Shown: positions 10,726 through 48,889 of the stretch, piece after piece
How positions within the stretch are numbered: position 1 is the first letter of the stretch
How the letters are laid out: the number at the start of each line of letters is the position of its first letter
Origin: an uncultured Planctomycetales bacterium
GTDB lineage: Bacteria > Planctomycetota > Phycisphaerae > UBA1845 > Fen-1342
NCBI GenBank assembly: GCA_964523405.1
Contig: CAZGAQ010000004.1
Span: forward strand, 76,984 to 140,983
Reading direction: 5' to 3'
Length of the DNA stretch: 64,000 bases
The notes under the pieces: model-generated
What the model saw: the letters and a program-made list of their open reading frames with translations, nothing else
Databases searched by the model: none
What the model was told of the DNA's origin: nothing
Program-made: the position numbers and the translations under genes

Positions 10726-10826
10726 GTCTCCGCCTGACAGGGTGTAGCGCGTCCGGCTCCGCCTGCCCAGCAGGAATCGGATGGGTGCCGGACGAAGGAC
10801 CCCCGTCCCGAAGCACTACGCCTGAA
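10726..10826. repeat. dispersed intergenic repeat family, copy D
   Basis: ...gcctgacagggtgtagcgcgtccggctccgcctgccc... shares a ~90 bp alignment with copies at 19405 and 35690. Confidence 0.6.
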
Positions 10827-10870
10827 GTAAATCCGCTCTAGAGACACATTGCGGTCGCGCCAAAAGAAAC

Positions 10871-10897
10871 CCGGCCGTGCAGCCTCTGCACGGCCGG
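10871..10897 (-). terminator. rho-independent terminator (12-bp GC stem followed by a U-tract on the minus strand)
   Basis: ccggccgtgcag-cct-ctgcacggccgg. On the minus strand it is followed by GTTTCTTTTGG. Lies ~115 nt downstream of the Lys/His-rich gene. Confidence 0.5.
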
Positions 10898-11010
10898 ACC
10901 GGCTGCGTTTCACTTGCTGCGCCGTCCAGGTGTAACGCGGCGCTCCCCGCGGACCGTGCCTCGGGTTCGCGCGCGGCCGGCCGGGGATCAGCACTTCGCG
11001 CGCGACGCCG

Positions 11011-11292
11011 CTAGTGCTTGTGGTTCTTGGCCTTGGCGGTCTTGTGCGTCGCCTTCGTGGTCTTGTTGTGCTTCTTCGCGTGCTTCTTGCTGTTCTTCTT
11101 GGTGTGCTTCTTCGCGTGCTTCTTGGCCTTCTTGGTGTGCTTGGCCTTGGTGGTCTTGTGCTGCGCAACCTTGGCCGGCGCCGGGCTCGGCGGAGCGGCC
11201 AACGCCGTGGCGGCGCCACCCAGACCCATCGTCGACCCGATGACCCCAATCATGGTGCCCGTCAGCAGATTGCGGAAACTCCTCGACAGCAT
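11011..11292 (-). CDS. small secreted Lys/His-rich low-complexity protein
   Basis: MLSRSFRNLLTGTMIGVIGSTMGLGGAATALA signal peptide, then KKHAKKHTKK-type K/H-rich repeats. GGAGAAG RBS 6 nt upstream. Confidence 0.5.
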   Translation of the reverse strand: MLSRSFRNLLTGTMIGVIGSTMGLGGAATALAAPPSPAPAKVAQHKTTKAKHTKKAKKHAKKHTKKNSKKHAKKHNKTTKATHKTAKAKNHKH

Positions 11293-11559
11293 TTTCGTCT
11301 TCTCCACTCAGACATTCTCTGTCGACCGTCCGCAGAAGTTCGCACCCTCGCCGGTGCGCTGCGGCCGAGCGACTTGATGAACGCGGAATTGTACGTCTGC
11401 CACCCCCCCAGGTGCGAAATACGCGTCAGAATTGCCGCCCACCGGCGCGCCAAACCAGCGGCTCACCGCACCAATAAGACCCTATCACAAGAAACACAAC
11501 TAATTGTCCACGCTTGCGTTAGATGCACGCTCCTCGCAGCCCGCCGCAGCAGTCGCGTC

Positions 11560-11640
11560 GGCCCCCGCCTGCCCCGAACGAAACTGAGGGATAACCGATG
11601 TAGAGCACCGCAAACGCCGCAAAGTTCGGCGTTCGCCTCA
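11560..11640. repeat. dispersed intergenic repeat family, copy B
   Basis: cccgcctgccccgaacgaaactgagggata core shared with copies A and C. Confidence 0.55.
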
Positions 11641-46150: not shown

Positions 46151-46584
46151 CGTACGCTCCCTCTGCGGAAGTCCCGCGGGCGGCCGATTGTACGCCACAC
46201 CCGCGCCACCTGCACGCGCCACGCGGGCTCGCCCCTCCCGCGCTGTCCGAGAATACCAGTTCCGGCGCGCCCTCCGACGCACTCGCAGGTTCCCGCCTGG
46301 TTCCAACGCTGTCACTACTCGGACAGACCCTCGGCTACCCCGGCGCGAGCACCCGTCCCCTGTTGCTCAAGACTACAACTTCTTACTTGTGACCCCAGCG
46401 GCCGCTTCGCTATAGTGCGCACTGGAGGAAGCGAGAGTCGGCCCTGCCGGGTGGACTAATCCGCAAAACGCTGTGTGCGGCGGCGCCACAGGGCGCCCGC
46501 TTTGCTTTGGAGAGAGTGTCTGACGCGCCGGCCGAGTGCGCCGGCGCCGTGTGGAGTACTTGGGATCAGGGTAGGAGGATAGCT

Positions 46585-47292
46585 ATGAAGAAGATGAGTG
46601 TATTGGCCGTTGTACTTGGACTCGTCGCGGCAACACACGCGACAACCCTGTACTCAACCGGCTTCGAGCCCCCGATGTTTGTCGCCGGTAGTTCCCTCAT
46701 GGGACAAGATGGCTGGCAGGGCGACAGCGAGGCTGCCGCTCAGGTCCAGACCGCCGTGGTGTATGCGGGCACCCAGGCCGCCTCGTTCGATTCGTCCCCA
46801 GTGGTCAGCGCCTGGTGGTGGAAGGTTACGCCCTTCGATCCGGTGGGCGCCGGCGAGCCGATCGTGGAAATCAGCGCCCAGATGCAGCTGGGTAGTGCCG
46901 GCACCCCCAGCGGGTCTTGGGGCTTCGACGTCTACGACAGCACGGTCGCCCGCTCGGCCTTGCTGTACGTGGACAGCACGAACCTCGTGAAAATCTACGA
47001 CGTCGAAGGCGCTACCGCCCTCGACACGGGCATCTCCGTGACGCGCGACACCTGGTTCAGCGTCAAGCTCGTCCTCGACTACGCCAACGACACCTACTAC
47101 GGCGTTGTCAACGGCGTGCCCACGTTGACCACGAACCTCGGTTCCCAACTCGATCTGAGCGACGCCGATGTCCGCGTTACCGGCGCGCAGTACGACATGT
47201 GCTACGTCGACGAGTTCAGCATCACCGCCACCCCCGAGCCGGCCTCCTGCCTGCTCCTGGGCCTCGGCATCCTGGCGCTGCGCCGCCGCTAG
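46585..47292 (+). CDS. PEP-CTERM sorting-domain secreted protein
   Basis: Signal peptide MKKMSVLAVVLGLVAATHA, with GGAGGAT RBS. C-terminal PEPASCLLLGLGILALRRR (PEP motif + TM + basic tail). Confidence 0.75.
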   Translation: MKKMSVLAVVLGLVAATHATTLYSTGFEPPMFVAGSSLMGQDGWQGDSEAAAQVQTAVVYAGTQAASFDSSPVVSAWWWKVTPFDPVGAGEPIVEISAQMQLGSAGTPSGSWGFDVYDSTVARSALLYVDSTNLVKIYDVEGATALDTGISVTRDTWFSVKLVLDYANDTYYGVVNGVPTLTTNLGSQLDLSDADVRVTGAQYDMCYVDEFSITATPEPASCLLLGLGILALRRR

Positions 47293-47502
47293 TCCAGCAC
47301 AACTTGCAGATACCCCCCCGCGGCCGGCGAGCAACCCTCGTCGGCCGTGGCCGTCTGAGATGCACTCCGCCCGGTCCCCACCACCTATCCCCTGTCGGGA
47401 GTTGTCGCCCGCGATACGCCCGCCCCGCCCCCGGCGCATGACCCATTACAATCGGCGCCGCCGCACGTGCGGCGCACACCGACAGCAGCGAAAGGTGCCG
47501 GC

Positions 47503-48765
47503 ATGCCGACAAGTCGTACCGTGGGGCAAATCATCCGGTCCGGTGCGCTCAGTGCCGCCATTCTTGCCAGCACGGCCACCGCCTCCGCCCAGTGGCTCCA
47601 ATGGGGCGGCCCCAATCGGGACTTCACCTGCAGCGCCACCGGCCTCGCCGCCCAATGGCCCGCCGACGGCCCCAGGAAACTCTGGTCCCGCGACATCGGC
47701 CCCGGCCACTCCGCCATCGTCGTCGATGGCGACACCCTCTACACCATGTGCCGCCGCGATGACAAAGACGCCGTCCTCGCCCTCCGTACCGCCACCGGCG
47801 AACCCGTCTGGGAAACCACCTACGACGCTCCACCCAAAGAAGGCATGCTCCTCGACTACGGCCCCGGCCCCCACGCCACCCCCCTCGTCGTCGGCGACCG
47901 CCTCTTCACCATCGGCGGCCTCGTCCACCTCACCGCCCTCGACAAAAAGACCGGCAAGATTCTCTGGCAACACGACCTGATGGCCGAATACGGTGCCGGT
48001 CACCTGCAGCGCGGCTACGGCGCCAGCCCCGTCGCTTACCGCGACCTCGTCATCGTCAACGTCGGCGGCAAGGACTTCGGCGTCGCCGCCTTCAAACAGG
48101 ACTCCGGCGAAATCGCCTGGAAGAGTGAGCCCTTCCGCGGCGGCTACCCCACGCCGCTCCTGACGAAGATCAACAACGAAGACCACCTCATCCTAACCCT
48201 CGCCATGGACCGCGCCGCCCTCGACCCCGCCACCGGCCAGACCCGCTGGAAAACTACCGTCGACAAACAGCTCGCCGGCATCATGAGCACGCCCCTCTTC
48301 ATCGCCCCCGACCGCGTCCTCTTCTCCTCCGCCTACGGCGGCGCCACCCAGCTCTACCGCATCACGCACAAGGACGACGCCTACGCCGCCGAACTCCTCT
48401 GGACCAACGAGAAGATGAAGGTCATGCACGGCACAATCGTCCGCTCCGGCGACCTCATCGTCGGCTCCAGCGGCGACTTCGGACCCGCCTTCCTCATGGG
48501 CCTCCACCTCGACACCGGCAAGATCGCTTGGCGCGACCGCACCTTCGCCAAGACCAACCTGCTCCTCGCTGACGGCAAGCTCATCCTGCTCGACGAGACC
48601 GGCCTCCTTGCCCTCGCCACCGTCACCCCCGACGGCCTGAAAATCGTCTCCCAGGCCCAGGTTCTCGCCGACAAAAGCTGGACCGTCCCCACTCTCGTCG
48701 GCACCCGCCTCTACCTCCGCGACAACAAGACCATCCTCGCCCTCGACCTCGCCCCCGCCGGCTAG
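47503..48765 (+). CDS. PQQ-like beta-propeller repeat protein (BamB-like), secreted
   Basis: Signal peptide MPTSRTVGQIIRSGALSAAILASTATASA. Repeated PQQ enzyme-like blades (GDTLYT, GDRLFT, GDLIVG, DGKLILL). Confidence 0.8.
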   Translation: MPTSRTVGQIIRSGALSAAILASTATASAQWLQWGGPNRDFTCSATGLAAQWPADGPRKLWSRDIGPGHSAIVVDGDTLYTMCRRDDKDAVLALRTATGEPVWETTYDAPPKEGMLLDYGPGPHATPLVVGDRLFTIGGLVHLTALDKKTGKILWQHDLMAEYGAGHLQRGYGASPVAYRDLVIVNVGGKDFGVAAFKQDSGEIAWKSEPFRGGYPTPLLTKINNEDHLILTLAMDRAALDPATGQTRWKTTVDKQLAGIMSTPLFIAPDRVLFSSAYGGATQLYRITHKDDAYAAELLWTNEKMKVMHGTIVRSGDLIVGSSGDFGPAFLMGLHLDTGKIAWRDRTFAKTNLLLADGKLILLDETGLLALATVTPDGLKIVSQAQVLADKSWTVPTLVGTRLYLRDNKTILALDLAPAG

Positions 48766-48814
48766 CGCCGTGCTGTGCCTTGCGCGCGACACAACCGCAG
48801 AAGCACCTCCTTGC

Positions 48815-48889
48815 AGCGTCAGGCCTCCACCTGCCCTACACGAACATGAGCCGCGCCCGATAATGGGGGACCGACCTCCGGTCGGTCTT
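48815..48889. repeat. dispersed intergenic repeat family copy F (partial) followed by 25-mer palindrome gggggaccgacctccggtcggtct
   Basis: gcgtcaggcctccacctgccctacacgaacatgag resembles the family core. The 25-mer is identical to 40562-40587. Confidence 0.5.

Follow-up and report, generated by a model that had tools for sequence, protein, structure and literature searches.

The closest described counterparts of the repeats analysed here are the repetitive extragenic palindromes, known as REP, BIME and REPIN elements (PMC3733652, PMC3333891), which are short G+C-rich imperfect palindromes, present in many dispersed copies, whose stems undergo compensatory changes. REPs lie between convergent or co-directional genes, near the 3′ end of the upstream gene (Di Nocera 2013, PMC3733652). 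They carry a GTAG-like or CGTC tetranucleotide at the 5′ foot, are patchy among related organisms, have families common to distant phyla, including the PVC group, and show occasional in-frame intragenic copies. A classical REP is 20-40 nt long, with a 6-13 bp stem and a small loop. Typical of the GTAG/CGTC-tagged kind are also a cognate Y1 transposase (RAYT) with copies on its flanks and a genome-wide number of at least 100 copies. How the CGTC-type REPs spread without an obvious transposase was left open by Di Nocera et al. (PMC3733652). Rickettsia palindromic elements (RPEs) are likewise palindromic and selfish, and occupy intergenic DNA as well as in-frame positions within conserved protein genes. 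MITEs, such as Correia/NEMIS and RUP, are non-coding and dispersed, and have terminal inverted repeats that mark the element ends, with a target-site duplication on the flanks of each copy. The IS200/IS605 elements have strand-specific subterminal hairpins with a short 5′ guide or tag, and their insertion orientation tracks the replication fork (Ton-Hoang 2012, PMC3333891).

In the window, by which we mean the whole 64-kb stretch of DNA that was analysed, seven copies of one repeat family are present. The preliminary description had listed six dispersed repeats, and these prove to be related, all on the + strand and, after a check of the gene calls, all intergenic as claimed. The seventh, G7, is a shortened copy on the − strand that lies beyond the range then covered. 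The copies are as follows.

Copy A, 10731..10814, + strand: long form without the first hairpin (68.1 bits with the covariance model); GTAG tag and 5′ arm CGTCCGGC at 10744-10757, inner hairpin 10766-10785, 3′ arm GCCGGACG 10787-10794; starts 46 nt past the TAG stop (10683-10685) of the + gene 9795..10685, between convergent genes.
Copy B, 11552..11600, + strand: short form (57.9 bits); GTCG tag, arms CGTCGG and CCGATG, inner hairpin 11572-11591 with exact core; about 80 nt past the stop (11681-11683) of an HD-like gene on the − strand and 245 nt ahead of another − gene, 11014..11307, antisense to both neighbours.
Copy C, 19406..19504, + strand: long form (72 bits); first hairpin CGTCAGGC-N6-GCCTGACG 19406-19427, GTAG and arm 19432-19445, inner hairpin 19455-19474 with exact core, 3′ arm GCCTGACG 19476-19483; begins 33 nt behind the + gene 16323..19373 (TAG stop 19371-19373), with the following + gene starting at about 20050.
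Copy D, 23083..23132, + strand: short form (67.9 bits); GTTG tag, arms CGGCCG and CGGCCG, inner hairpin 23104-23123; starts 16 nt past the TGA stop (23065-23067) of a DUF4230 gene, upstream of sppA (called start 23377).
Copy E, 35692..35775, + strand: long form (63.8 bits); first hairpin 35694-35714, inner hairpin 35742-35761, outermost inverted arms 35689-35701 with 35763-35775; between two − strand genes, 30 nt past the stop of the GH20 gene (35805-35807) and about 140 nt ahead of the paralogue gene, which has its real start at about 35550, antisense to both neighbours.
Copy F, 48813..48861, + strand: short, degenerate form (55 bits); GCAG tag, arm CGTCAGGC, decayed inner hairpin position 48834-48853, 3′ arm GCCCGAT; starts 48 nt past the TAG stop (48763-48765) of a BamB-like + gene, between convergent genes.
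Copy G7, 63833..63918, − strand: shortened form (36.6 bits, with G7 itself a training sequence of that model); hairpin CGTCCGGC-N6-GCCGGACG 63895-63916, GTAG-CG-TTGGCC 63858-63869, shortened inner hairpin CCCCGAAC-TTA-TGAGGGG 63842-63859, 3′ arm GGCCGACG 63833-63840; begins 6 nt behind a − gene truncated by the window edge (TGA stop 63926-63924), with the next − strand ATG about 25 nt farther on, sense to both neighbours.

Several details of the earlier picture change. The form of about 90 nt, formerly assigned to copies "A/D/E", is that of the copies at 10726, 19405 and 35690, with pairwise identities of 58-68%. The proposed shared core CCGCCTGCCCCGAAC..TGAGGGAT is intact at just two places, 11565 and 19448; at 23097 it reads TGAGGGCC, with two mismatches, and in the copies at 10726, 35690 and 48815 it has diverged. 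The 7-bp hairpin said to open copy A is absent. The inverted repeat of that copy pairs 10750-10760 with 10784-10794, and it is the copies at 19406 and 35694 that open with 8-bp hairpins, CGTCAGGC/GCCTGAC(G).

The family is real, and the evidence for it is the longer alignment rather than the 15-mer. Taken alone, the 15-mer with up to three mismatches has 18 matches compared with 9.7 expected, a modest, roughly twofold enrichment which, together with the many stems that arise by chance in G+C-rich DNA, might have suggested a mere resemblance among G+C-rich intergenic sequences with no true family behind it. That reading is already refuted. Over 109 nt, copies A and C are 68% identical, and a profile made from the three long copies only (A, C and E) and scanned on the window retrieved the other three (E-values of 1.4e-4 for B, 1.6e-4 for F and 0.016 for D) and essentially nothing else. 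At every window position scored with the covariance model, background reached at most 19.8 bits, compared with 36.6-72 bits for the seven copies, which are thus set apart by more than 16 bits; the scan of the whole window gave no copies past these seven. Independent support for G7 is weak, and consists of nhmmer E-values of 0.11 and 0.19 with a shared architecture recognised by eye. A partial match at 43085-43099 has the C-rich half without TGAGGG and was not counted, and a covariance-model match at 10942-11002(−), with 16.9 bits, looks like chance.

Each copy has at its centre an inner hairpin of the form YCCC-GA-RC-loop-GY-GA-GGGR, 18-20 nt in length, in which 3-4 C:G pairs are followed by two tandem G.A mismatches, one or two further pairs and a 4-nt loop. 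This is usually enclosed by an outer stem, CGTCNGGC/GCCNGACG, of 5-8 bp (8/8 in A; 8/8 including one G.T in G7; 6 in B and in D; 5-6 in E; 4+2 with a bulge in C; 6/8 in F), around a structured loop of 29-31 nt. A GTAG-like tag often stands in front; it is exact in three of the seven copies (A, C and G7), appears as GTCG in B, GCAG in F and GTTG in D, and is missing from E. The outer stem alone is statistically ordinary, stems of at least 6 bp with the same geometry being found at 45% of random positions in this 67% G+C DNA, and the folding energy of most copies is no better than that of shuffled sequences. In the nested hairpins 72.6% of cells are paired, compared with 34-45% when the partners are slid, and five pairs are changed on both sides, compared with 0-3. 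Diverged copies hold their hairpin pairs through compensatory changes; the inner hairpin of copy A has retained its pairing through two double changes (C-G to A-T and C-G to G-C). In the inner hairpin of copy E, GAGC..CGAG replaces GAAC..TGAG. Because of the G.A pairs, folding favours the motif strand over its complement by about 2 kcal/mol. Two other readings of the sequence were rejected. A fragment derived from 5S rRNA was suggested by the visual likeness of GCCTGAC..GTAGCGCG and CCGCCTGCCCC..GAAC to the 5′ half of that RNA, and permissive Rfam scans gave no 5S match; a conserved small peptide is contradicted by the ATGs of A and C, which are in different frames.

Each of the seven copies is found within 6-80 nt past a stop codon. 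Copies A and F are between convergent genes and the remaining five between unidirectional genes, and none of the seven is in a divergent promoter region. Five copies are sense with respect to their neighbours, 6-48 nt past the stop codon, and two (B and E) are antisense, a mixture of orientations that argues for a DNA-level element. The motif strand is the locally C-rich strand in 7/7 copies, on both sides of a change in the sign of the GC skew near 51 kb, and this bias was not reproduced in loci outside the window (16/26, p=0.33). A replication origin at the skew switch was considered and dropped, as there is no DnaA-box cluster. No gene in the window is linked to the repeats, the neighbours being unrelated housekeeping genes, and neither a transposase, including the Y1_Tnp domain, among the window proteins nor a sigma-70 promoter at the copies was found.

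The family is frequent in the genome analysed, at seven copies in 64 kb. Five related Phycisphaerae genomes, the nearest relatives sampled and covered over 93 kb, have no copy, compared with about 10 expected at the window density; copy D recurs in two further assemblies of the same organism. The 26-nt core CCGCYTGYCCCGAAC-N5-TGAGGG, on the other hand, occurs in Planctomycetia, Omnitrophota, Acidobacteriota and a Patescibacteria-like (CPR) contig, at 10 genome and 24 metagenome loci in all, which have further, unselected features in common, and the core is shared by bacteria of several phyla. At 13/13 external loci the second unit, which was not selected for, has a Watson-Crick R:Y pair (Fisher p=0.002), although these loci were gathered by exact-pattern scans, with an ascertainment bias for covariation. 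One external locus, L031, has the order GTAG-stem-core-stem-TAC. By our reading, about 15 of 22 external loci are antisense to genes, and several hosts rich in A+T have an A-run on one side of the module and a T-run on the other, in the manner of a bidirectional terminator. In the CPR contig the core is an in-frame insertion in a housekeeping gene, that of a class I aldolase, where the element encodes 32-40 amino acids, with the core peptide ..PQRSSGQAG.., in comparison with homologues of 73-79% identity. The core also lies inside long ORFs at six further metagenome loci. Pfam searches of 148 ORFs adjoining 26 external loci revealed no enriched family and no transposase, and plasmid and viral collections gave no meaningful match.

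Compared with the described systems, the window copies are most like REPs. They share with them the short, G+C-rich imperfect palindromes in dispersed copies, the compensatory stem changes, the location just past the upstream gene, with neighbours that converge or run in one direction (7/7), a GTAG-like tag that often stands at the 5′ foot, the patchy occurrence among related organisms, the presence in distant phyla and the occasional in-frame copy. They differ in that the modules are 49-99 nt, longer and more complex than classical REPs, the tag is degenerate, and a 5-8 bp outer stem encloses a structured loop with the tandem-G.A inner hairpin. The core sequence was not found in the text supplementary tables of PMC3733652, a comparison that does not extend to the figure of REP consensus sequences. 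With RPEs there is no sequence relation and the host range is another one; all seven window copies are intergenic, and in-frame insertion of the RPE type is seen outside the window only, in the aldolase, with the core also lying within the six other long ORFs. A different repeat family is inserted in-frame within the window. The orientation on the C-rich strand across the skew switch, and the strand-specific hairpin with its tag, recall the IS200/IS605 ends; unlike these, the copies have no tnpA or tnpB nearby, and the external loci do not reproduce the bias.

Of the three options in the preliminary description, MITE-like elements come closest. The copies are dispersed, non-coding, of similar size, hairpin-forming and absent from close relatives, with the core in-frame in a gene elsewhere, and copies C and E have inverted arms of 8 and 13 nt that are 61-62 nt apart. 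The terminal inverted repeats are inconsistent, however: the arms occur in C and E only, the short copies having none, and homology between copies runs past them (by about 20 nt beyond the right arm for A and C). No parent IS is known. The copy alignments show no flanking direct repeats, and the aldolase insertion has no clear duplication when set against an uninterrupted homologue, its ends being fuzzy and the homologue only 79% identical. That neither a target-site duplication nor clean ends can be defined counts against a REP/RPE assignment too, as do the greater length and complexity of the modules, the inexact tag of four copies, the absence of a transposase from the window, the ordinary outer stem and folding energies, and the strand bias that external loci do not reproduce, but the likeness to REPs and RPEs remains the greater.

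The main rival is that the repeat is a functional RNA element of the 3′ UTR, transcribed with the upstream gene, whose transcript it would end, shield from 3′-exonucleases or provide with a site for processing or protein binding. The five sense copies just past their stops, the compensatory changes, the better folding of the motif strand and the A-run and T-run flanks in A+T-rich hosts all speak for it, and it would accommodate the earlier suggestion of terminator or attenuator modules, for which the position behind stop codons is indeed suitable. We nevertheless regard it as rather unlikely. None of the window copies is followed by a U-run, and no site from the terminator scan coincides with a copy, the nearest, at 10868-10900 and 48868-48890, being separate hairpins, the latter a strong one just after copy F. 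B and E run antisense to the genes on either side, as most external loci do to theirs, and the element is wholly absent from the five related genomes. The copies have no Rfam match at the gathering threshold, and permissive scans of A, C and seven external loci brought up no meaningful match to the element; the only Rfam match in the window is a c-di-AMP riboswitch at 33442-33609.

The third of the earlier options, binding sites for a global regulator or a nucleoid-associated protein on double-stranded DNA, is much less probable again. E. coli REPs are reported to bind IHF, gyrase and Pol I, and the blocks CCGCCTGCCCCGAAC and TGAGGG are conserved at a fixed spacing; but the spacer length differs in G7 and in the external locus L020, no copy is in a promoter region, related genomes have none of the sites, and the base-pair covariation seen at conserved positions is more than a site on duplex DNA calls for. 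Such covariation is also unexplained by the least credible of the alternatives still standing, that the repeats are ECF-type alternative sigma promoters, GAAC-N16-CGAC, for small RNAs or downstream genes. GAAC is indeed followed 16 nt on by CGAT, TGAC or CGAC in B, C and D, whereas the spacing is 14 nt in G7, GAAC is missing in A, E and F, and A and F are directed at the ends of converging genes, so that neither has a gene downstream. The external family, moreover, retains GAAC..TGAGGG and not the second box.

We conclude that these repeats probably represent a new family of REP/RPE-like non-autonomous palindromic elements, small selfish hairpin-forming repeats that sit behind genes in this Phycisphaerae genome. 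The kind of element is ordinary, but its core is also present in several other phyla. The copies would have arisen by insertion of an element mobilised in trans, plausibly through a folded single-stranded DNA intermediate handled by an HUH/Y1 enzyme, RAYT- or IS200-like, encoded elsewhere. They may then have persisted where insertion is harmless, in the dispensable DNA just behind stop codons, and the hairpin, co-transcribed in the 3′ UTR, may incidentally stabilise or end the transcript. A wider reading is possible, although we offer it tentatively: the inner hairpin YCCC-GA-RC-N4-GY-GA-GGGR with its prefix CCGCCTG could define an undescribed and very widespread class of mobile mini-elements, in Planctomycetota, Omnitrophota, Acidobacteriota, Patescibacteria and others, the tandem-G.A hairpin serving as the recognition structure for a shared putative single-strand DNA or RNA enzyme, and the elements colonising intergenic DNA and, in-frame, essential genes of reduced genomes. 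The core hairpin was found neither in Rfam nor in the searchable literature, where searches with the core sequence, shorter versions and the encoded peptides gave nothing relevant and general searches only REP and RPE papers.

For the source genome the finding is mainly a point of annotation, the intergenic blocks most likely being selfish palindromic repeats rather than regulators or small-RNA genes, and it would explain why spurious ORFs and assembly breaks may arise at such blocks. In the CPR contig the core lengthens a glycolytic enzyme by about 35 amino acids. Recognition of the core by a single enzyme family, if true, would provide a handle on how REP-like elements spread without an obvious transposase.

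A preliminary description of this stretch had proposed a family of six dispersed repeats, and all six are borne out: a repeat is present at 6/6 of the claimed sites, in each case on the + strand of a window with 67% G+C. There is a long form (copies A, C and E, with pairwise identities of 58-68%) and a short form (B, D and F), and a profile trained on the three long copies alone recovered all three short ones. The ~90-nt form had been ascribed to copies A, D and E, but its members are the first, third and fifth copies, and the opening hairpin described for copy A belongs to copies C and E instead. 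The family was also undercounted. A weak extra profile match, then read by eye, gave a seventh, shortened copy, G7, on the - strand, with the same building blocks as the others. A covariance model built from these same seven copies and scored at each window position gave them 36.6-72 bits, and at most 19.8 bits to the rest of the window; since the model separates the seven from all other positions, we put the number of copies in the window at seven. The finding is genuine, and its extent somewhat greater than first noted.

Copies of the repeat, with distance behind the stop codon, orientation to flanking genes and E-value for the long-copy profile
10731-10814, +, copy A, long form; 46 nt behind stop; sense
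11552-11600, +, copy B, short form; about 80 nt behind stop; antisense to both neighbours; E=1.4e-4
19406-19504, +, copy C, long form; 33 nt behind stop; sense
23083-23132, +, copy D, short form; 16 nt behind stop; sense; E=0.016
35692-35775, +, copy E, long form; 30 nt behind stop; antisense to both neighbours
48813-48861, +, copy F, short form; 48 nt behind stop; sense; E=1.6e-4
63833-63918, -, copy G7, shortened; 6 nt behind stop; sense

The centre of the repeat is an 18-20-nt hairpin (CCCC-GA-AC-AAAT-GT-GA-GGGA in copy C), in which three or four C:G pairs are followed by a symmetric G.A/A.G internal loop, two more pairs and a 4-nt loop. Diverged copies retain this inner hairpin through compensatory double changes: relative to copy C, copy A has A-T for one C-G pair and G-C for another, and copy E has G-C in place of the A-T of the other copies. 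The hairpin is nested: around it lie CYCCGCCTG, a block rich in C, and the two arms of an outer stem, CGTCNGGC ... GCCNGACG. This stem has no mismatch in A, nor in G7 save for one G.T pair, and is shortened or bulged in the remaining copies (CGGCCG/CGGCCG in D). The outer stem is directly preceded by the tetranucleotide GTAG in A, C and G7, and by a one-base variant of it in three further copies: GTCG in B, GCAG in F and GTTG in D. In the alignment of all seven copies 72.6% of cells are paired, compared with 34-45% when the partners are slid by 1-3 columns, and five pairs are altered on both sides, compared with 0-3 in the slid controls; as these statistics rest on seven related sequences, their support is modest. 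Stems of at least 6 occur at 45% of random positions in window DNA with the same geometry, and the folding energies of most copies were no better than those of shuffles. Chance is an unlikely explanation of the family.

Gene calls, made from codon statistics and verified with Pfam and by eye, place every copy shortly after a stop codon (7/7), at the 3' ends of genes. Convergent gene pairs flank A and F, co-directional pairs flank the other five, and none of the seven lies between divergent genes. The neighbouring genes (PEGA/CsgG-like, amidase, ABC transporter, DUF4230, SppA, GH20, BamB-like and GH63-like) are functionally unrelated, and Pfam revealed no linked gene beside window or external copies. 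In the window scan neither a sigma-70-like promoter nor a hairpin-plus-T-run coincided with any copy. That the copies are ECF-type promoters is unlikely. The sole Rfam match in the window is an unrelated c-di-AMP (ydaO-type) riboswitch (33442-33609, -; 57.4 bits, gathering score 38), upstream of the gene (30969..33230, -) that encodes an SPFH/Band 7 domain protein of 753 aa.

The window has several other features. The gene at 11014-11307 (-) encodes a small protein rich in lysine, whose N-terminus is hydrophobic and whose tail is of the KKHAKKHTKK type; the protein has no Pfam match, and its coding DNA consists of degenerate 9-21-nt tandem repeats, mostly of 12 nt. The probable terminator of this gene is a strong hairpin of 15 bp at 10868-10900, accompanied by a T-run on the - strand and situated some 55 nt downstream of copy A. 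Two tandem 31-nt units at 19536-19600 (+), GTAGGGC(A/G)G(T/A)TTGCGCAACCACC(G/A)ACTAG, are located between copy C and the gene (20050..22026) for the ABC transporter; both contain the palindrome TTGCGCAA, and together they could form an operator-like site. Copy E is followed by short CCCTCAATCC / CTTAATCCC repeats (35790-35835), and at 43085 (within 43077-43135) the C-rich half of the core is partly matched by CCGCCCGGCCCGAAC, with CCCCTCAATCC behind it; these may be remnants, now decayed, of this element or of a related one. Tandem paralogous membrane proteins (33683-34621 and 34645-35550, -) resemble each other in the N-terminal region, where both have a CGKCGY..CPECG motif like that of a zinc ribbon; the first 270 nt of their genes are 83% identical, and neither matches a Pfam family.

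The SppA encoded in the window matches, at 100% identity, a protein on record in NCBI, JGI and Logan assemblies; its next relatives are at most 69% identical, some source-named as Phycisphaerae or Planctomycetes MAGs. The DNA accordingly comes from a Phycisphaerae-like planctomycete. In 93 kb from five Phycisphaerae genomes (SppA 66-69% identical) no copy was found by covariance model, profile or pattern, where ~10 would be expected at window density. This absence argues against a clade-inherited regulatory RNA or protein site, and is as expected of a selfish repeat expanded in one lineage.

Orientation is mixed, with sense and antisense copies at 5:2 in the window and, by manual reading, about 7:15 in external loci. 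The motif strand is the locally C-rich strand in 7/7 window copies: + strand GC skew is negative from 1 to 51 kb, where six copies lie on +; from 51 to 64 kb, the stretch with G7 on -, it is positive. Random orientation would give this pattern, noticed post hoc, about 1 time in 64 for this direction, and external loci did not reproduce it (16/26, p=0.33). It is compatible, as a lead only, with fork-coupled single-strand insertion such as that of IS200/IS605 (PMC3333891). The skew itself turns from about -0.2 to about +0.2 at ~51000-51600, a cumulative minimum, independently of gene direction. Neither dnaA nor dnaN lies nearby and no DnaA-box cluster was found there, so that the switch may be a replication origin, an inversion/rearrangement breakpoint or an assembly join. 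Two paralogous + strand genes (51520-54141 and 54871-57264) carry ~20 tandem 138-nt (46-aa) repeats with a W-N-G..W..LG motif, matching Rax2/DUF5122 beta-propeller repeats in Pfam; their flanks (51489-51788 / 54750-55049 and 53911-54210 / 57034-57333) are 85-90% identical, implying recent duplication.

Scanning one genome per species with the pattern CCGCYTGYCCCGAACNNNNNTGAGGG gave 10 loci, in hosts including a Planctomycetia MAG (two contigs), two Omnitrophota, a Phycisphaerales MAG, Sulfotelmatobacter (Acidobacteriota) and an Eubacteriales-labelled MAG; two of the matches, at L003 and L006, fall inside genes and seem fortuitous. A metagenome scan added 24 loci. The module is G+C-rich and conspicuous in A+T-rich hosts, where it often has an A-run 5' and a T-run 3', and where features outside the search pattern recur: TTGTC ahead, a TGTCCCG direct repeat and a second unit, AAGC-N5-CGAGGGG. 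Bases of this unit equivalent to R and Y are Watson-Crick partners in 13/13 loci (G:C 8, A:T 4, C:G 1; Fisher p=0.002). L031 and L016, two loci of high G+C, likewise have an outer stem around the core, but with another sequence; in L031, GTAG lies ahead and TAC behind. Together, the unselected features, the R:Y pairing and the outer stems show that a conserved structural core is common to the window family and elements in several phyla. Rfam models did not match the external loci.

At seven external loci (L002, L012, L013, L014, L022, L025 and L028) the core lies within a long ORF, on the non-coding strand in 7/7, and most translate as ..PQ(R/Q)SSGQA... The clearest insertion is that at L012, in a class I fructose-bisphosphate aldolase of 375 aa, compared with 328-342 aa in homologues (73-79% identity), of which some of the closest are source-labelled Patescibacteria or Parcubacteria (CPR). 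The extra 32-40 residues are confined to one loop and coded by two adjacent element units; no target duplication is evident, in a comparison too diverged for certainty. In-frame or intragenic insertion is described for Rickettsia RPEs and intragenic REPs (PMC3733652), and the aldolase shows the same behaviour. This genome itself also seems to harbour in-frame selfish DNA of the RPE type, in the form of a second, unrelated palindromic repeat in the window, ..CCAACTCCCCTCCCTCCCAGGGAGGGGGCAGGGGGAGGGTC... Four copies are in-frame in an AcrB-like RND transporter gene (26635..30498, 1287 aa), encoding ..PTPLPPREGAGGGSEP.., and two lie inside a Y-family (IMS) polymerase-like ORF (39645..41672, -).

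Copies of the CCAACTCCCCTCCCTCCCAGGGAGGGGGCAGGGGGAGGGTC-type repeat
27132-27270, RND transporter gene, two tandem units
27792-27870, RND transporter gene
29751-29829, RND transporter gene
40328-40368, IMS ORF
40448-40488, IMS ORF

We consider it reasonably likely that the repeats make up a new family of non-autonomous palindromic elements resembling REPs and RPEs. The main rival, a genuine 3'-UTR RNA module, seems rather improbable: sense and antisense copies both occur, in the window and in external loci, which is not expected of an RNA whose function needs the G.A-containing strand, and the 93 kb of five relatives lack copies. A duplex protein-binding site, against which the same absence tells, is also unlikely. 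The repeats fall outside the formal definition of a MITE. As REP/RPE-like elements they would be mobilised in trans by an enzyme of the HUH/Y1 type acting on the folded single-stranded form, and might have incidental effects on mRNA 3' ends. Membership of the GTAG-REP superfamily is not established, the window tag being degenerate and the module exceeding a REP in size.

Elements of this kind are already well known. We found no published description of the cross-phylum tandem-G.A core or of its insertion in an enzyme, and neither core sequence nor encoded peptides in the searchable literature. What is noteworthy is this core, common to several phyla, and its occurrence, in a Patescibacteria-like (CPR) contig, within a conserved enzyme.
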